DNA of 64,000 nucleotides. It comes from Eledone cirrhosa (taxonomy: Eukaryota). Below are positions 13,086 to 56,195 of the stretch, piece after piece. The translations under genes were made by a program, and so were the position numbers. Numbering within the stretch: the first letter of the stretch is position 1; each line of letters opens with the position of its first letter. The notes beneath the pieces were generated by a model. The model did no database searches and was not told the DNA's origin. It saw only the letters and a program-made list of their open reading frames with translations. The stretch is from positions 6,262,001 through 6,326,000 of the forward strand of contig OZ024753.1 in NCBI GenBank assembly GCA_964016885.1, in the 5' to 3' direction.

Positions 13086-13508
13086 ATTGTTATCATTATT
13101 ATCATCATCATCATCATTATAATTGCAACAGGTATGTATATATATTTATATATTTCTGTATCAATTATTTCACTTTTCTTCTGCAGTCTGGGACACTTTC
13201 TTTTCATATTTTTAGTTCTCTCTCCAGTAATTTCTGTAAAGAAAATTATCTTTAGTATTTTAACTTTAGTGTTTACATTTCCTGTCGTAAAAAAATATTA
13301 CAATTTTTATCTGGCATATTTTCATTTTTTCAGGATTTTTTTTTTTTTCTCCTTTTTGGTGAATGTGCATTTGTTGCATTACGGACGATTAATAAATGTT
13401 TTATAGGGTCAATACATGAAAATACAGATTGTAGTAACTTGACTTTACGCAGCAGAACAAACATCCAAACGTATTCAATATCGTTTGTATGATGTTTCAA
13501 TATTGCCT

Positions 13509-13545
<37 letters not shown>

Positions 13546-13689
13546 CACAGTTCAAGAGTAACCAATCTTAAAGAGAGAGATGGAGATAGGAGAGGAGATA
13601 TGAGAGGAGAGATTGGTGAATTAGTTAGAGCACATGCCTTTACGCTTTGGCTTCTATGTGCAATATGCAGTAGAAAGCAGCTAGGTGGA

Positions 13690-14365
13690 TGGGTTCATGC
13701 AGAAGTTAGGTGCGCAGCCTATAGTCCAACCGAGGGAGACAGTGACGTAAGTGTGGAAGAGTTCCATGAGGAGGTGTGTAGAGCTGTCAACACCATCCGA
13801 GCACACAACATCCTGATTGTTTTGGGGGACTTCAATGCACATCTGAGTAAGGAGGGCAGTGAAGATCCTTGATGGTACTTCCATAACACCACCAACCGAA
13901 ATGGAAGACTACTGAGAGACACCCTGCTCGAGGTGAACTTGATACCGACCAACCTAAGGTTTAGGAAGGATCCGGGAAAGATGTGGACCTACATCTCAGA
14001 TATGCACCTGTCCAAGTCCCAGATTGATTTCATTCTGGTGAGGAAAAATTGGCGGAATAGTGTTCTGAACACAGAACCATACAACTATTTCAGTACACTG
14101 GGTAGTGACCACCGGCTTGTTATGAGTGAGGTCCGGGTGAGCTTAAGAAAGAGCAAGGCTCAGCCCCGGAGAGCAATCTATGACTGGGGGGATTTCAAGG
14201 AAGATAAGCTACAGGAGAGGTTCACAGTGGAAGTGAGGAACAGGTTCAGTGCTCTGTGTGGAGAGACAGAGGAGAGAGAGATTGGATGAACTGAGGAGAG
14301 TGTTACGAAGAGGTATGGGCACTTCACCAATGCAGTGGTGGAAGCAAGTGAGACCCTGGTGCCGA
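13690..14365 (+). pseudogene. LINE apurinic-like endonuclease (APE) domain fragment, RTE-related group
   Basis: AYSPT...IVLGDFNAHL...TNRNGRLL...SQIDFILVRKNWRNSV...GSDHRLV...RFTVEVRNRFSAL; one in-frame stop at ~13870. Confidence 0.9.
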
Positions 14366-16412: not shown

Positions 16413-16570
16413 TAACGAAGAGGGTGTGGTAAGATACCAGGTGGACCATAATGCACCAGAGTACTCAATCCTTAGAGTAGTAATGTGGATAATAGGAAAA
16501 GAGTCAGGACCCCGACGGCTCTTTCTGTCGAAATGGCAGGAGCTCACCCGTTGGGGTCCTGACTCTTTTT

Positions 16571-16572
<2 letters not shown>
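16413..16572 (-). mobile_element. Short non-autonomous PLE-like repeat (half-hammerhead family) with terminal fold-back
   Basis: Same tail as the 43.7- and 45.3-kb copies (GAGTACTCTGGTGCATTATGGTCCACCTGG on the minus strand). Inverted repeat GGAAAAGAGTCAGGACCCC / GGGGTCCTGACTCTTTTTCC at 16495-16572. Flanked by (TA)n. Confidence 0.75.
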
Positions 16573-17140: not shown

Positions 17141-17818
17141 AAATGGAAGGTTAGTAAAATCGAAAATTGAAAACTGCGGCAAGCAAGCCATTGCCACATA
17201 ATACATCAAAGCAACGAAAATACATTCAGGTTAGATATATTTTTTATATATATATATATATATATAGTTAGGAGATTGTATATGTGCTTTACTGTGTAAG
17301 CATGTGTGTGTGCCGTTGTTCGACTTTGCGTACATCGGGTCACTAGTATAGCTAGGTACTGAATGGTACGGTGTCAGAAACTGCGGCCATCATTGAGACA
17401 ATCTATTTTACATAATTGTTTTAACAACTCGATGTGCATAAACTTATAGACACAGATGGATATACATACATACTAGTTTCTCGACACTTGCAAATAAATA
17501 GTGACGTGAACACTAATTTTACTGGTGTAATAGTGTATATAGTAGTGTATATAGTAGTGTGTTTATGGAGGCTAACCAAAGATAAACAAAACAGTTCTGA
17601 AACGGATAAACAATGACTGAGAAATAACTGAGACATCTAATTCAATGGACGACGTTTAATTCCATCAGAACAACAATGCACATACTGACGCCCACCATGT
17701 ATATATATATGTATGTATATATATATATATATATATATATAGGAAAAAGTATGACCCCGACGGCAGAGCTCAATCCGTTTCGACGGTATATACTTTCAAC
17801 CATCTGGCAGGAAGGTAT

Positions 17819-29650: not shown

Positions 29651-29787
29651 TTTAGGGTAGTAGAGTGGGTAATAGGAAAATGTTTGACCCCCGACGGCAA
29701 GCTCAAGCCGTTTCGACGGCTATTTCTGGACTGAAATAGCCGTCGAAACGGCTTGAGCTCTGCCGTCGGGGTCAAACAGTTTCCTAT
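29651..29787. mobile_element. Half-hammerhead PLE-like repeat with fold-back palindrome
   Basis: Arms 29672-29726 and 29733-29787, loop TGGACT. Each arm carries GAAACGGC-TTGAGCT(C)T-GCCGTC-GGGG(G)TC. Flanked by (TA)n. Confidence 0.82.
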
Positions 29788-30241: not shown

Positions 30242-30627
30242 ATAAAATATTAAACAAATAATGAATAAACAATTCCTTATATTAAACAAAAAAAGTTCAT
30301 TATTTAACGATCGTTTCTAGGATATATATGTGTTATAATTGGTATGCATATTCAACAGATCTATGTACAAAATTATACAAAATTATACAAATTATCAAGA
30401 TTAAATATACATACCAAACACATTATTTCTGAAGACGGCGTATATATGTGTTTGGTATGTATATTTAATCTTGATAATTTGTATAATTTTGTATAATTTT
30501 GTACATAGATCTGTTGAATATGCATACCAATTATAACACATATATATCCTAGAAACGATCGTTAAATAATGAACTTTTTTTGTTTAATATAAGGAATTGT
30601 TTATTCATTATTTGTTTAATATTTTAT
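30242..30627. repeat. 182-bp-arm inverted repeat (PLE-type inverted terminal duplication)
   Basis: 30242-30423 reads as the reverse complement of 30446-30627 with no mismatch I could see; the 22-nt spacer contains CTGAAGA. Confidence 0.93.
30421..30571 (+). ncRNA. Type I hammerhead ribozyme motif with very long stem II
   Basis: Stem I CATTATTT/AAATAATG; CTGAAGA 30429-30435; ~116-nt stem II region (TATATATGTGTT/AACACATATATA, TGGTATGTATATT/AATATGCATACCA); GAA + palindromic ACGATCGT + T (T30563). Confidence 0.8.
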
Positions 30628-32385: not shown

Positions 32386-32628
32386 CTACCTGGAGTTGCG
32401 ACCGATAGATAGTATTAGCAATTGGAAAGACCAACGGAAACATTGTTCCCTCGGTCCGATTTGACGAAAGTCGATCGTCTTCTATATATATATATATGCA
32501 AAAGTTCTATTTAAAATTGTTGGGATACAACAAGTAAATATTTTTATAACTGATATAAAGCACTCAACAAATATTTGGAGTAGATATACGATATTAATTA
32601 ATGGAAACTATATTTATAAAACCATATT

Positions 32629-32693
32629 TATTTCATTATACATATTTCAGGGATACCAAATTAAATTATGGTATGCCTTCATCAGACAAAATA
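32629..32693 (-). ncRNA. Hammerhead motif of the AT-rich PLE-like family (degenerate)
   Basis: Minus strand TATTTTGT-CTGATGA-AGGCATACC...GGTATCCCT-GAA-ATATGTAT-A-ATGAAATA, in the same flanking context as the 51.8- and 52.5-kb copies. Confidence 0.65.
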
Positions 32694-32819
32694 CAATATA
32701 TAACAGTTTTACAAATAAGCTTTGACGTACCCTATTAAAATGCAACCATTGTTTTTGGAAGCCATATATATATATATATATATAATCAAACATTAATATG
32801 GTTCATTGATGTTTGATTA

Positions 32820-37095: not shown

Positions 37096-37269
37096 TGTGC
37101 TTAAAAATAAGAATTCAAAGAAAGTAAGAATGGAGGAAGTTCTCCTCATCAGATGTCTGCTGGGGGTCTCAGATATTTCTACGTAGAAATATCCGAGACC
37201 CCCAGCAGACATCTGATGAGGAAAACTTCTCCCGTTCTTGCTTTCCTCTTATTCTTATTTTGAAGCACA
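37096..37269. repeat. Loop-less ~87-bp-arm palindrome with hammerhead-like motifs
   Basis: Centre TTTCTAC|GTAGAAA (37182/37183). Inner ~39 bp nearly perfect, outer arms diverged. The right arm contains GAAATATC and CTGATGA. Confidence 0.88.
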
Positions 37270-38344
37270 CCTTATCTAGCGACTACACAGCCAATTCTTT
37301 TCCTCATATATTATATATTATATATATATTATATATATTTATATAAGGATATTTTTACAGACACGCATGCATTTAATATAATTCTGAAATCGAAATTGCA
37401 TCAAATATTTATGGCAGATTTGGGAAAATAAATCACCAGTCCAAACAATACTATAGGCTGCTAATTAATTTCCCTCTCCCTATTGTTCCTCATATGGCTT
37501 TAGTAAACAATGTGTTATGTAATACAGCTCCTCACAATGGTAAGACGCATTTGTTAAACATCACGGCCATAGATGAAATCATAACCTATTAGATGAAGAA
37601 ACAAATATAAGATATTACGAATTCTTAGACATCAATACAGTTGACAAAGGGCACCAGAGACAAATGAAAGAGACGCTTCTGGTGGGATATTATGTGACAA
37701 AAGATTTAATACTGGAATGAAAGCTGAAAGCAAATGAAAAATACTAATCGGCTTCAACAGATTTCGTCTTAGTAATACGTTATCCTAATGATATTCTGAA
37801 GTGAAATCCAAACGATCTTGCAAGTCAGCTCAACAAAATAAAGAATAATTTATTCGGAAAATGCCACATAATACATGTAACATATTATATTATGAATACG
37901 GAGTATTTGGTTGTCTTTAAGAAACAGTTCATTGTATATGTTATCGTAATATACAAAATAGTTTAGCATAGAAAGTGGAAGCATAAAGTATGAAAAATAA
38001 TTTTTGTGAAAAAAGAAGAATAAAATGAAACATATGAGATAAAATGAACCTCGTCGTCATTTACATATTAACAACAATGGTACAATTAAACGACGTATCT
38101 GTAAATAGAGTATTAATATAAGGAGGTTAAGAGAAATTGTTTGACAATATTGTAACAGATCAAAACCGAGAAGCAAAATAAATCAGGAAGATCAATATAA
38201 TATTTCTTTCGAATTTTTTAACAATAAAGTTTCTGTAGTTTAATCTAGTAAGATTACATACACAGAATTGACAAAAAGATATCTCATATGAACGCTGCAC
38301 GAAGCATCTTCCTACTTACTCAGCCACGTGGTGCTCTCAACAAC

Positions 38345-38680
38345 CAGCTCCATGCGTTCCCAGTAGTGCTATCTTTTGTATGCTCTGTATATTTGTAAGT
38401 TCTGGGGTTTTGGTATTACTCTGTGTGTGTGTTTTTGTTATTGTAGGTATTGTTTCTGTTTTCATTTGGAATATTCGAGTAATTTCTACCTCTAGATCTT
38501 TACATTTGGAGAGTTTCTCTATTTTCTTGGAAGATATATTGTCGTCTGCGGGGATAAATACATCTATTAGAGGCATTATTTTCCTTTTTAGACTATAATA
38601 TCTGGTCGGTTGGCTTTGATCTCTATGTCTATGTATTGGCATATCCCAGAGAATCGTAACTTTCTCATTCTCTGACACTT
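38345..38680 (-). pseudogene. R4/Dong-like restriction-like endonuclease remnant
   Basis: ENEKVTILWDMPI..IEIKANRPDIIV..IDVFIPADDNISSKKIEKLSKCKDLEVEI..IQKIALLGT (PD..D and K..KY.DL motifs). Confidence 0.82.
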
Positions 38681-38723
38681 TTTTTGTGTATTATTATTAT
38701 TATATTTATTATTGTTATTTAAA

Positions 38724-39246: not shown

Positions 39247-39552
39247 AATAATTGTTTCTATTTTAGGCACGAGGCCAGCAATTACTCAGTACATTACTGG
39301 TACTTTATTTTATCGACCCCGTAAGGATGAAAGGCAAAGTTAACCTCGGCAGGATTTGAACTCAGATCGTAAAGGGACGTAACTATGCTGGAAAGCATGT
39401 CCGACCCTCCACCGATACGGCCCTTTATAGTCTGAGTTCAAATCCCGCCGAGGTTAACTTTGCCTTTTATCCTTACGGGGGTCGATAAAATAAAGTACCA
39501 GTCACGCACAGGGTAATTGCTGGACTTGTGCCAAAAGTTTGAAACTATTATT
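39247..39552. mobile_element. Two SINE copies fused head-to-head (minus 39247-39418, plus 39419-39552)
   Basis: A reverse-complement copy directly abuts a 5'-truncated forward copy. Confidence 0.88.
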
Positions 39553-43340: not shown

Positions 43341-43657
43341 CACGCGCACACACACGTCCAGACATGCACACACGCGCATACACACACGTACAGACACTCA
43401 CACACACACAATCACACACAGACATACTACACACTCATATAACTTTCCCTCTCTCACACGCAGTCACAAGCACGCATATATATGTATACATACACAAAAC
43501 CGGAAGCAGAGTCGGATACACTCACACGCAGACACGCACACACACACACACACGCACACACACACACACACGCACACACACATATGCAGGCATACACACA
43601 CACATGCAGACATACACTCGAAGACATACACTCGCAGACATACACACACTCAGATCT

Positions 43658-43790
43658 ATCTGTCGAAACGGCCGAAGCTCAGCCGTCAGGATCCTGACTC
43701 TTCTCCTATTACCCACTCTACTATCCCTATGTATTGAGTACTCTGGTGCGTTATGGTCCACCTGGCATCTTACCACACTTTGTCATAAAT
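43658..43790 (+). mobile_element. Half-hammerhead PLE-like repeat (no fold-back)
   Basis: TCTGTC-GAAACGGC-CGAAGCTCA-GCCGTC-AGGATC...GAGTACTCTGGTGCGTTATGGTCCACCTGGCATCTTACCAC, then (TA)n. Confidence 0.75.
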
Positions 43791-45103: not shown

Positions 45104-45256
45104 AATTAATCGTATATAGAGATAAATATAAAAACGGGTTTTGATTGTTACTGGTAATACACTTTCCATAGAGGTTTCTATAATCGGGGATTCGGAGAGA
45201 ATGATTGAGGTAGTTCTGTCAGTTATTTATCTCTCTCTCTCTAAATATATGTATAT

Positions 45257-45453
45257 ATAGGAGAAAGTATGACCCCGACAGCAGAGCTCAAGCTGTTTCG
45301 ACGGCTATTTCTGGACGCTCCAGAAATAGCCGTCGAAACAGCTTGAGCTCTGCCGTCGGGGTCATACTTTCTCCTATTACCCACTCTACCACCCTAAGTT
45401 ATGAGTACTCTGATGCGTTATGGTCCATCTGATTCCTTACCACAATTCCTTTG

Positions 45454-45456
<3 letters not shown>
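45257..45456 (+). mobile_element. Half-hammerhead PLE-like repeat with 59-bp fold-back palindrome
   Basis: Arms 45257-45315 and 45319-45377, loop CGC. The right arm continues into the family tail. Flanked by (TA)n. Confidence 0.85.
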
Positions 45457-45493
<37 letters not shown>

Positions 45494-49450: not shown

Positions 49451-50397
49451 AACCTAGAAGAACATAATTAACTCCAACATTAAACAAAGCACGACTGTTA
49501 AGAAAAATCCAAAGAATTGAATTATTCATACACAAGAATGTATTTCAACGAAGATATATCGCTTTATTTACTCCGACTAAATCTCAGACTTTCCTTAACA
49601 GGATAGGAAATGAAAAATGGTGTTGTCATTATGTATATAAACATTTTGCATATGTATAATTATATATCTTGCAAACTACATTCTTATACATTCATATATA
49701 TATATATTTATATGATTATAATATATAAATAAATATATATATATATATAACCAAAAGTTAAACAAGGTTCATTGATTAATCAAGGAATATAGTTTTACAA
49801 TAGATTAGAAGCGGTCAGCAAAAAGGTTTTCTGGAGTTATTAATATTAATTCAAAATACTAATAAATATAGACATTCACGTAATCAAAATATGTGTGTAT
49901 ATATATGGATATAGATCTATATATATAATAAACACAAACACTACAGGGAGCCTTACCACAGAAAGAATTTCTATAGACTTCTGAGATGAGGAATGCTCTC
50001 AAAACTGACCAATGGGAAGTTTGACATGTTTTGGTTATTTTGTTACTTGCCACCTTGTTCCTTCTACCACTTTATCAATCTTTTAAGCTAACTCCAACAA
50101 TAACAACACTACCAACACAAGAATTGAGGTCAGATGTACCTAACAATAACAAGAACAACAACTACAGATTGGCTTGCCTCAGAACGAACTGCTATAGACT
50201 TTTGAATGAGGAATGTGCTAACAACTGACCAATGAGAGGAGAAGAGGCCCTTTGACACTGAAATTCGTTTGTTTGAATTCATATGATTCCAGTTCCTCAA
50301 TGAAATAACAACCCAACCAGGAACTGGGCATATCAGAGTATTGACAAAATTATACACCTCAACAACATATGTACTTGTCTATACCACACTAATTCGG

Positions 50398-50452
50398 ACT
50401 GCCTGAAGAGTTCACAGCCAAAGATGGCTGTCACCGAAATATATATAGCAGT
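50398..50452 (+). ncRNA. Type I minimal hammerhead ribozyme motif (intact core)
   Basis: Stem I ACTGC/GCAGT; CTGAAGA; stem II ACAGCCA-AAGA-TGGCTGT; GAA + palindromic ATATATAT + A (A50447). Confidence 0.87.
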
Positions 50453-50682
50453 AATAAACGAAGCTAAATTTTAAACATTTGCATATATATGTAATGATAA
50501 TAAATATGAAGACTAAAATCCATTCTTTACTCTCATCTCCTCCTCTTTTTCATCCTTTCCAACCCCCCTCCCTCAATTTTTTTTCTCCCAATATCACACA
50601 TCAATCAAAAACTACTTTTCATATGTTGATTTAAACTGCACTATTCACAAGTGTTTTTAACCTTCATATCATGTCTCCCTAT

Positions 50683-50744
50683 TTTATCTGACGAAAACGC
50701 AAATGTCATCGCATGATATTTGTTTTTGAAATGCGCATAATAAA
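50683..50744 (+). ncRNA. Type I minimal hammerhead ribozyme motif (intact core)
   Basis: Stem I TTTAT/ATAAA; CTGACGA; stem II GCAAATGTCAT-CGC-ATGATATTTGT; GAA + palindromic ATGCGCAT + A (A50739). Confidence 0.85.
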
Positions 50745-50879
50745 TTACATGGAACTCTTTTAACCATCTTTTGATCTTATATATTATTATTTATACTCCA
50801 GTCCTACAAACTGTAGAGTGCTACTTATCCGATATCTGCATTGCTTTATTGTACTACAATAAAACTCACCTCCTACATA

Positions 50880-51606: not shown

Positions 51607-51781
51607 TTTAAAGGTTAAACAAGGTTCGATGAATAAATCAAAGAATTAGTTTTACAATAGATTGGAAGCACTCAACTGTGAGGTTTTCCGGAGTTATTAA
51701 TAGTTCTATTTTTGTTAATATTTTGAATGGATATATATATAATATATTAATAAATGGAAACTATATTTATAAAACCATAAT

Positions 51782-51845
51782 TATTTTATTATATATATTT
51801 CAAGGGCAACCAAGGCAATCTTTGTGCGCTTTCATCAGATAAATA
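51782..51845 (-). ncRNA. Minimal hammerhead motif, AT-rich PLE-like family
   Basis: Minus strand TATTTAT-CTGATGA-(stem II)-GAA-ATATATAT-A-ATAAAATA. Confidence 0.72.
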
Positions 51846-52294
51846 CAAAATATGTTTTTATAAATAGTGCCATAACCGTGGAAAACAACCTTGACGGTTG
51901 AAAAAGGTTTGTTGGAATCCCAGCAAATTAAATATAACTTCTGCATATATATATATATATATATAAATTGCCAAGACTGGAATTGAACTATCAGCACAGT
52001 TGAAGTATGTCATACATCAATTTATTTTATCTGATGAGGACGTACTAAGGAAATAGCACTGTACCTCTGAAATATATTTGATCACATGAATGTCTATATT
52101 TAGTAATATATATATACACACTCACTCATACCGTTTTGTAAGATTAGTTATCTGATGAAAACGTGTGTTGAAACATATTATATTTTGTGAGGGTCATGTT
52201 GCCAATAAAAACGCACGCACCTGTTATGTGGTAACACACAAAAACAACATGGTGTAGGACAGAACAAAGGAAAGAGACACATCATAAAAACCTA

Positions 52295-52337
52295 GTCACT
52301 GAGGAGTTCACAGAATGTGTGACGAAAGAGCTTTGGC
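52295..52337 (+). ncRNA. Minimal hammerhead motif inside a short element with inverted ends (~52178-52462)
   Basis: GTCA-CTGAGGA-GTTCACAGAATGTGTGAC-GAA-AGAGCT-T-TGGC. Flanking inverted repeat GAGGGTCATGTTGCCAATAAAAAC / GTTTTTATTGGCAACATGACCCTC. Confidence 0.7.
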
Positions 52338-52471
52338 AATATATAAACAATCTTCCGGTTACTGGAACCAACCAAGCAACCGCAATTTTATAATAAATTG
52401 AAGTCAAAACCATCAGGTGCATGTGTTTTTATTGGCAACATGACCCTCCCAAAGTGTAACGATATCTATAT

Positions 52472-52819
52472 ATATCAATGATATTAATAAATGGAAACTA
52501 TATTTATAAAAACCATATATTGTATTATATATATTTCAAGGGTATCACCACTTTGGTACGCACTCATCAGATAAAATACAAAGCTTGTTTTATAAATATT
52601 GAAATATCCAGGAATGAGACCTTAACGGTTCAAATTTTACCTGGTTAGGGTTAGGGTAAAACTTGAACTGTTAAGGTCTCATTGCTGTCAATATTTATAA
52701 ATCAAGCTTTGTATTTTATCTGATAAGTGCGTACCAAAATGTTGGTACCCTTGAAATATATATAATAGAATAAATATAGTTTTATAAATATAGTTTCCAT
52801 TTATTAATATCATTGATAT
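52472..52819. repeat. ~165-bp-arm inverted repeat, one hammerhead per arm, TTAGGG repeats at the apex
   Basis: Minus-strand hammerhead 52518-52578 (CTGATGA), plus-strand copy 52712-52772 (CTGATAA); the loop region contains GGTTAGGGTTAGGGT. Confidence 0.88.
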
Positions 52820-52907
52820 TATACTCCAGAAAAGCTGTCGAGTGCTTCGAATCTGTTATAAATATATGTATTTGTTGAATTACCAACAAATTAAATATCC
52901 ATTTGCT

Positions 52908-53575: not shown

Positions 53576-53690
53576 AGCAGTGGTTACACAACAGTTAGTT
53601 GACCATAACGAGAACAATTGTTTCACCTTAGCGGATCCTCAGCTGAGGAAACTGTTCACGGTATTGTGAACTAACTGTTGTGTAACTGCT
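53576..53690. repeat. Imperfect fold-back containing a minus-strand hammerhead motif (53609-53644)
   Basis: GTTACACAACAGTTAGTT / AACTAACTGTTGTGTAAC arms. Minus strand CTGAGGA-TCCGCTAAGGT-GAA-ACAATTGT-T-CTC. Junction palindrome TCCTCAGCTGAGGA. Confidence 0.72.
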
Positions 53691-55258: not shown

Positions 55259-55733
55259 TTTTCTCTTTCTCTTAATTTCGAGTATATTTTTTTGACCGGC
55301 AATGTTGTAAAAGAAAAGAAATTGTCATCCCTTGAATCGCAAGAATGTTTTCCAAATTTTGAAGGTGCCAGCTATCGCAGCCATTTGTAGACTATGGATT
55401 AGGGAGCTGCGCTTTTTGTCCGCAAATCCAAGTTCAGTCATACTTTGGTCCAAGCGGGTTGGTATATAACCCGTAGCTCCAATAATGATGGGTATGAAGC
55501 TAAATGTGTATCTTGGATACTGGATTTGCAAACTCCTCATCAATGGTCCGTAGATGTCCTCCTTCTCCTGTATTTTTCTGACAACGTTTACATCAAGTGG
55601 GCAGCTGATCTCCACAACAGAACACGTTTTCAATGTGTGGTCCCAAACTACAATATCAGGCTGGTTGTGCTTTAATTTGGTGGCAGTTTTTATTTTCAGG
55701 TTCCACCAGTATTCCTTAGTGCCATCTGTCTCA

Positions 55734-55735
<2 letters not shown>
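55259..55735 (-). mobile_element. 5'-truncated RLE-type non-LTR retrotransposon (R4/NeSL-like) with uninterrupted endonuclease reading frame
   Basis: [71 protein letters not shown] (stop at 55325), then a short 3' UTR running into (CATA)n. Confidence 0.88.
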
Positions 55736-55764
<29 letters not shown>

Positions 55765-56195
55765 TGTATGTATGTATGTATGTATGTATGTATGTGTATA
55801 TATGTATGTATGTATATATATGTATATATGTATATATATACATATATATATATACATATCTATGTACTCTGATGTGTTGACCAGTTTTAAACAATGTATT
55901 TGAGATGGATTGACGAAACCCCAAGCGATTAGCCAACTCTAGACACACCTGATCAACGAAACAATCGCCAGTACTTTAAATAAAGCCCCTTATTGTACAG
56001 CCTACCAAGTTACTCTTCTTCCTTTAACTATTATTACTCCAAGTATAACCTACATAGAAATTACCGCGAACTCGCTGCATAGCTATGGAAACATCTTGTT
56101 GGATCAAACAAAGCCGTACGTTAAAACTATCCACGATGCTGAATACTCTAACTGGATTACCTCTAAGTGGATTACCTATAGCGATAACTTGTTAT

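Follow-up and report, generated by a model that had tools for sequence, protein, structure and literature searches.

A repeat family of Eledone cirrhosa carrying the 3' half of a hammerhead-like motif, with a clustered 5' boundary and frequent head-to-head inversion

The window analysed here is a 64,000-nt stretch of the Eledone cirrhosa genome (assembly GCA_964016885.1, contig OZ024753.1, positions 6,262,001 to 6,326,000). The five related loci reported in it by the first-pass annotation are all present, and BLASTN within the 64-kb window groups them into one family, of which eight arms were counted. Three of the five loci (16.5, 29.7 and 45.3 kb) are inverted head-to-head pairs. At 45.3 kb, the short arm (45257-45316, minus strand) starts with GTCC at the common boundary of the family, 17 nt before GAAA, and has the short 3' end (…CCTAT), which adjoins a TA tract. 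The turn (45317-45318) consists of copy-specific letters and leads into the long arm (45319-45456, plus strand), which starts 16 nt before GAAA, contains the half-hammerhead core and continues into an extra 3' tail of 79 nt, followed by (TA)n. This tail (45378-45456, plus strand) is present on that arm only and spans the interval between the two main 3' ends of the family. At 29.7 kb, the longer arm (29651-29732, minus strand) starts with AGTCC, 18 nt before GAAA, and ends midway in the tail; the short arm (29733-29787, plus strand) starts 12 nt before GAAA and has the short 3' end. The inversions annotated at 29.7 and 45.3 kb are confirmed, with loops at the turn of 6 and 3 nt, respectively, but a third, asymmetric inversion at 16.5 kb had been overlooked. 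It pairs a long-tailed arm of the second subfamily (16413-16519, minus strand), which starts after GAAA and thus lacks both GAAA and the 5' strand of stem III, with a short-tailed arm (16520-16572, plus strand) that has a fuller 5' side, starting 10 nt before GAAA. The two solo copies are a 17.7-kb arm (17739-17786, minus strand), which starts 5 nt before GAAA, has the short 3' end and is flanked by TA on both sides, and a 43.7-kb long arm of the second subfamily (43651-43790, plus strand), which starts 14 nt before GAAA with a 4-bp hairpin at its 5' end.

The ends of the arms follow a common pattern. The start lies 5-18 nt before GAAA in seven of the eight arms, within the range of about 5-20 nt that had been ascribed to all of them; the exception is the 16.5-kb long arm, which begins in the 3' strand of stem III. 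TA repeats adjoin the 3' end of all eight arms, and in all three inverted loci the tail is one-sided or unequal, the two arms having different 3' ends. None of the arms starts at the predicted cleavage site, in keeping with the earlier view that the 5' ends are not set by self-cleavage.

The conserved core of the family reads GTC-GAAA-CGGC-N9-GCCG-TC-GGGGTC. In the 45.3-kb long arm the hammerhead-like 3' half occupies 45335-45363 on the plus strand, with GAAA at 45335-45338, a stem III at 45339-45342/45352-45355 that contains an A·C mismatch, a 9-nt loop with an AGCT palindrome, UC at 45356-45357, a predicted cut at 45357^45358, and GGGGTC as an orphan stem I strand. A strict descriptor (C-GAAA, four Watson-Crick pairs, UH) was passed by four of the eight arms, which have C11.1-GAAA, helix III and the NUH triplet; the 45.3-kb long arm fails it because its private A at 45340 breaks stem III. 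The half motif arose on either strand in 13, 3 and 9 of 5,000 dinucleotide shuffles of three arms (0.06-0.3% per arm), and the descriptor also matches three unrelated places in the 64 kb. The two subfamilies diverge ahead of GTC-GAAA, within the 9-nt loop and downstream of GGGGTC, and are alike at those positions which a 3' hammerhead half would hold constant.

CTGANGA occurs in none of the eight arms, so the claim that only the 3' half is carried stands, except that the 16.5-kb long arm lacks GAAA too; GACCCC-CTGA is absent throughout the window. The 5' strands of helices II and I are missing from the arms, save for the 4-bp hairpin at 43651-43662 at the 5' end of the 43.7-kb copy. No stem II is thus demonstrable, and the proposed placement of the break inside it is presumptive. 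Rfam gave nothing beyond miRNA-like hairpin noise and a Hammerhead_HH9 match at chance level (12.3 bits, E 2.9; gathering threshold 52). An apparent compensatory pair in the 45.3-kb short arm consists of two CpG-type changes, and was therefore rejected as covariation. Judged from sequence, the half motif is probably of hammerhead origin, though it is no ribozyme as it stands, and self-cleavage by the family arms is not expected without the core strand.

These results bear on the reading that the family has nothing to do with Penelope-like elements (PLEs), being a fold-back or MITE-like DNA element or the terminus of some other retroelement that targets (TA)n, with a chance likeness to the hammerhead and inversions made by repair. 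The chance-level Rfam match, the lack of any compensatory change free of CpG decay, the missing coding link to PLEs and the inversion, in the same window, of an unrelated SINE-like family (39262-39536) all speak for it. We nevertheless consider it very improbable, since the two subfamilies share conserved letters only at the hammerhead positions, the motif has the low chance rate given above, the solo arms are polar, and unequal outer ends with varying centres are the reverse of what characterizes a MITE. A MITE or TIR-type DNA element was rejected on the unequal outer ends, the existence of solo arms and a centre that differs in each copy. Any target-site duplication would be masked by the microsatellite around the arms.

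The arms of one locus resemble each other more than they resemble those of another, with 1 and 3 differences per 48 nt within loci and 5-7 between the 45.3-kb and 29.7-kb arms. Furthermore, both 45.3-kb arms have two rare private variants in common (45340/45294 and 45371/45263). The copy-specific variants had been taken to mean that one arm was copied from the other; their sharing is confirmed, but it implies only a common template, not which arm derived from which. At 16.5 kb, the arm richer in 5' sequence is the poorer in 3' sequence, and as each arm has sequence absent from the other, neither can be a simple snap-back copy.

Snap-back remains the main competitor of the explanation that we favour below. 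A PLE-type enzyme would prime on a single strand, the cDNA would run off at the RNA 5' end and fold back through chance microhomology or added bases, extension would be carried out by the RT of the element or by host polymerase theta, and the copied arm would then be cut or joined at the short end. The private variants common to both 45.3-kb arms are in its favour, as are the 29.7-kb locus, where the longer-tailed arm is also the more 5'-complete, and a 30.4-kb palindrome of another family, whose arms are identical, stop at equal 3' ends and overlap by 3 nt at a loop of roughly 20 nt. Self-priming has been proposed for PLEs, in a description of rotifer Penelope copies with inverted pLTRs, a junction palindrome and a one-sided tail (PMC3846280), so that this explanation of PLE head-to-head palindromes, dating from 2013, is not new in kind; snap-back after full-length cDNA synthesis is reported for R2 proteins in cells, mostly so for one protein (PMC11371274). 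Against this, the copied arm must end where solo copies end too, the main-subfamily cDNA 3' end is predicted to be unpaired, and loop-free turns and the 16.5-kb structure need extra steps: snap-back requires that one arm contain the other, which fails at 16.5 kb unless a deletion occurred later. On balance we regard snap-back as possible, though rather unlikely.

To look at the family beyond the window, we compared 45250-45466 at 82% likeness with public runs, namely two contig sets from one sample (X1 and X2) and reduced-representation reads carrying the same species label (X21). The family matched 12,020 contig pieces in X1, 11,270 in X2 and 18,154 of the 12,467,656 reads of X21. A fourth set (X15), possibly of RNA, gave no match, which counts neither for nor against expression. 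Pattern scans for family members found none in viral contigs and none in genome contigs; four candidates in metagenome contigs were GC-rich, had no family flanks and were dismissed as chance matches.

The commonest 5' boundary of the family lies about 16-18 nt before GAAA. Loose ends before 45319 were seen in 152 X1 contigs, where this is the top site, in 125 X2 contigs and in 911 reads, and the mirror boundary, behind 45316, in 46 and 36 contigs and 357 reads. As the reference has no sequence upstream of 45319, the pile-up there collects every copy that reaches the boundary. The letters upstream of it are mixed (agreement 0.41-0.49), with a common part of only about AATTTAG in the three runs. 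The low agreement indicates that most copies diverge within roughly ten letters, which may hide a minority of longer copies, and the common AATTTAG indicates that some extend at least 6-7 nt past the boundary. The sequence ahead of the boundary looks like a splice acceptor (TTTAG/TTCAG), which is a weak lead; another weak one is its resemblance to what we take to be the initiator motif TCAKTY.

The 3' side has two ends. Behind 45377, loose ends run into (TA)n in 145 X1 and 136 X2 contigs, with the mirror at 45252 in 86 and 79 contigs and 1,177 reads; the long end lies at about 45456, also against (TA)n, 97-99 nt past the predicted ribozyme cut.

The turn differs from copy to copy, and there is no single constant loop. 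Eight indel rows near the turn total 146 row-counts in X1, the largest being 40, and rows may co-occur on one contig. A one-letter deletion, which alone gives a loop-free palindrome, was found in 24 X1 contigs, 20 X2 contigs and 12 reads. In 12 of the 15 joints listed, out of 50, one arm ends at 45310-45316 and the other starts at 45342-45409, or as far on as 45417 in a second tabulation; where the first arm reaches 45314-45316, the second starts between 45348 and 45417. Several second arms lie wholly in the tail, and the joints listed have 0-2 shared letters or short fillers such as ATAT. One of them, from 45316 to 45402, could be read as a pair of non-overlapping arms, on the strength of one or a few loci. 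Read depth in X21 falls to 93-98 at 45317-45318, compared with 910 at 45316 and 1,734 at 45320, but such dips were not taken as proof of a boundary, as depth may fall by read length and drops just as far at 45394-45401, a stretch in which the reference differs. These data support inversions formed anew in each copy.

The first-pass annotation had explained the boundary and the turn together. Full-length elements would have a whole hammerhead, the RT would stall in stem II, and the hairpin of the cDNA would prime the second strand. Several observations agree with this scheme. In both subfamilies the boundary coincides with the expected place of loop II, and its distance to GAAA is similar although the sequences differ; the 43.7-kb copy has its 4-bp hairpin at the 5' end; TTCT precedes AATTTAG in two of six loose-end consensus rows and could pair with the downstream AGAA; and rows of 17 contigs may represent further turns of the 29.7-kb type. 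The 5' breakpoints do cluster, as described above, but among the turns none dominates. The full-length copies with GACCCC-CTGANGA upstream did not appear either: CTGANGA is absent from the 18 loose-end rows listed, of 576, as it is from the arms, although a rare full-length master could still exist. Stalling itself would be expected at the 3' foot of the hairpin, whereas the arms run beyond stem III, the sole demonstrable hairpin, and beyond all of the putative 3' strand of stem II, and end where no pairing is predicted. As to priming, the only copy with a hairpin at the cDNA 3' end (43.7 kb) is solo, and a programmed primer is difficult to reconcile with the heterogeneous turns and with the 16.5-kb arms, each of which has private sequence. 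We thus hold stalling and priming by the ribozyme hairpin to be improbable.

Other palindromes of the window, found by a masked self-comparison that served as a control, tell against this scheme as well. At 52467-52823 a complete hammerhead motif is present in both arms, and the turn precedes the core by about 65 nt. The palindrome at 30245-30624, whose arms match without a difference for 186 nt, turns in stem I; the complete type I motif of its plus arm has a stem II region spanning 116 nt (from CTGAAGA at 30429 to GAAA), an 8-bp stem I and a palindromic stem III. A short palindrome at 53583-53686 turns directly before a CTGAGGA core, and a loop-free one at 37096-37269, with 87-nt arms, has GAAA preceding CTGATGA and no recognisable hammerhead. 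Inversion is thus common in the window and untied to stem II. The 30245-30624 palindrome is young, and its long stem II region would escape standard short-stem descriptors.

A coding partner was sought in several ways. The 41-aa open frame across the 16.5-kb arm has no protein match, and the two subfamilies differ by 2 nt within it, which makes coding unlikely. Ten chosen ORFs of the 97 in the window gave no match to the RT or GIY-YIG Pfam families, and the motifs of the family were not found in the supplementary files for Naiad, Chlamys and Hydra, save for one chance 11-mer. No autonomous partner was thus found, and PLE membership is putative, given the missing ORF link and the incomplete hammerhead. 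The window also contains LINE remnants at 55325-55975 and 38337-38690 (minus strand) and at 13438-14289 (plus strand), which have no DNA similarity to the family studied; 13873-14289 gives a weak Exo_endo_phos_2 match (E 0.01). Two of the remnant frames, with no Pfam match, resemble what we assume to be the restriction-like endonuclease ends of R2/R4-type elements.

The half motif, the inverted ends, the one-sided tail and (TA)n nevertheless make a Penelope-like origin likely, as had been proposed. In the EN+ PLEs (Arkhipova et al. 2013, PMC3846280; Craig et al. 2021, PMC8557442), as in this family, copies are inverted head to head, the junction forms a palindrome, a single end bears the tail, the targets are AT-rich or (TA)n and 5' truncation is heavy. 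The family differs from them by its 50-200-nt stubs with no ORF found, its 5' boundary clustered inside a ribozyme motif, its 79-nt tail instead of the usual 30-40 nt, and its 3' half motif where the pLTR of EN+ PLEs has a complete hammerhead. The type I hammerheads of PLEs (Cervera and de la Peña 2014, PMC4209133), some of which were noted as opposite-strand pairs 100-700 bp apart, have in common with the family C-GAAA, a helix III with a palindromic loop core and the NUH site; the family lacks their CUGANGA, helix II and 5' strand of helix I. Its helix III (4 bp and a 9-nt loop) is larger than in the metazoan minimal motifs, nearer to the fungal and protist variants described there. In Poseidon from Anolis (PAc; Frangieh et al. 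2024, PMC11167929) the hammerhead is whole and protein-assisted and the ORF starts in stem II, in contrast to the half motif without a found ORF in our family; we saw neither fixed 5' ends nor inverted products described for it. Non-LTR retrozymes (PMC7229834; bioRxiv 10.64898/2026.07.22.740005) are likewise short non-coding PLE-related repeats with a type I hammerhead sequence, but they are described as head-to-tail tandems of whole ribozymes, unlike our solo or head-to-head half motifs. A retrozyme was rejected, there being no tandem in the window and no backward-going joint among the 15 joints listed of 50. The 2026 O. vulgaris annotation counts 190 PLE families, making up 6.83% of the genome (PMC13282606), and the family studied here may already be annotated among octopus PLE families. 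In the open-licence papers searched, we found no description of a family breaking inside its own hammerhead.

Inversion is also known from non-LTR elements. L1 twin priming inverts non-overlapping parts of the RNA, whereas the arms of the present family mostly overlap, and neither L1 nor R2 is known to have such a 3' ribozyme. R2 insertions resemble the family in that target-primed reverse transcription leaves inverted sequence at their 5' junction (PMC11371274). Together, these comparisons suggest that the family likely behaves as a non-autonomous PLE stub, a variation on a known PLE stub structure and not a new ribozyme function.

From the anatomy of the copies, their clustered 5' boundary, their two 3' ends and their copy-specific turns, we infer a course of priming, run-off and joining that we favour tentatively, at slightly less than even confidence. 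PLE-type cDNAs would be primed at two internal sites and extended until they run off the RNA at its fixed 5' end, and pairs of these cDNAs would be joined head to head. In this proposal, a Penelope-like retroelement enzyme would prime cDNA from cut target DNA at either of two internal RNA sites, and the cDNA would run off an RNA 5' end situated inside the probable hammerhead. If one target strand is primed, a solo arm would result; if both are, two cDNAs of the same or a sister RNA would meet at their 3' ends. Blunt or microhomology end-joining of the two would then yield a head-to-head pair with unequal tails, turns of 0-6 nt or asymmetric ones, and short fillers. The fixed boundary would be the start of the RNA, set by an internal promoter or by the terminus of a short non-autonomous master, rather than a stall, and the half hammerhead would be an inactive passenger.

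Several lines of evidence are consistent with this proposal of paired run-off cDNAs. First, the short 3' end also ends the 17.7-kb solo copy and therefore looks like a priming site. Second, the PLE protein of PAc has two internal start sites on its RNA in vitro, located 85-92 nt beyond the ribozyme cut (97-99 nt for the long end of our family), and it is described as nicking and extending both target strands, preferring AT-rich DNA and using uncleaved RNA (PMC11167929). Third, inverted 5'-truncated copies, one-sided tails and a (TA)n bias are given as general PLE traits (PMC8557442), and Drosophila Penelope has an internal promoter (PMC2377424). Fourth, the window holds several intact type I hammerhead motifs of other families, which we counted for a PLE-type reading. 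The evidence against it is also substantial. The search described above (the 41-aa frame, the 10 chosen ORFs and the supplements) yielded no RT or GIY-YIG coding sequence with a link to the family, and the tail is longer than usual. The Penelope downstream promoter motif RGACGTGY, as given in PMC2377424, is absent from the arm. The pile-up at 45319 gathers all copies reaching it, some of which go further, as noted above. Finally, the geometry of the 29.7-kb and 45.3-kb loci suits snap-back equally, and the asymmetry at 16.5 kb could be due to a later deletion at the palindrome centre.

A stricter form of the proposal, which we consider unlikely, is that the RNA starts inside its own hammerhead, so that cDNAs from the two sites run off as strong-stop products, of which a dimeric enzyme writes one per target strand. 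If this were true, the 5' ribozyme copy would always be half and inactive, and the inverted pLTR and one-sided tail of PLEs would be paired strong-stop cDNAs; thousands of natural junctions would then allow the formation of PLE tandem and inverted structures to be tested directly. How PLEs make these ends is still called undefined in the text of PMC8557442, and a very abundant family, whose 5' boundary and two 3' ends are fixed and whose turns differ from copy to copy, is suited to telling dual priming from snap-back by junction counts in one assembly.

The window contains further repeats related to these subjects. The 10-mer CGTTATGGTC is common to the tail of the family and that of the 53583-53686 palindrome, possibly as a common PLE signal or by chance. 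A second hammerhead-bearing family (32508-32701, 51732-51903 and 52467-52823) has intact cores and (TA)n ends, and its 52.6-kb copy is arranged head to head around a loop with two telomere-like GGTTAG units. A very abundant SINE-like family, with 39262-39536 and about 25 other segments, also occurs as inverted pairs, some of them around a 200-450-nt spacer, and has what we take to be a tRNA B-box-like motif. Lastly, hammerhead-like motifs of unrelated sequence cluster within about 2.5 kb (50385-50460, 50680-50750, 52031-52070, 52152-52190 and 52299-52345), and those at 50403 and 50688 pass a strict type I scan.
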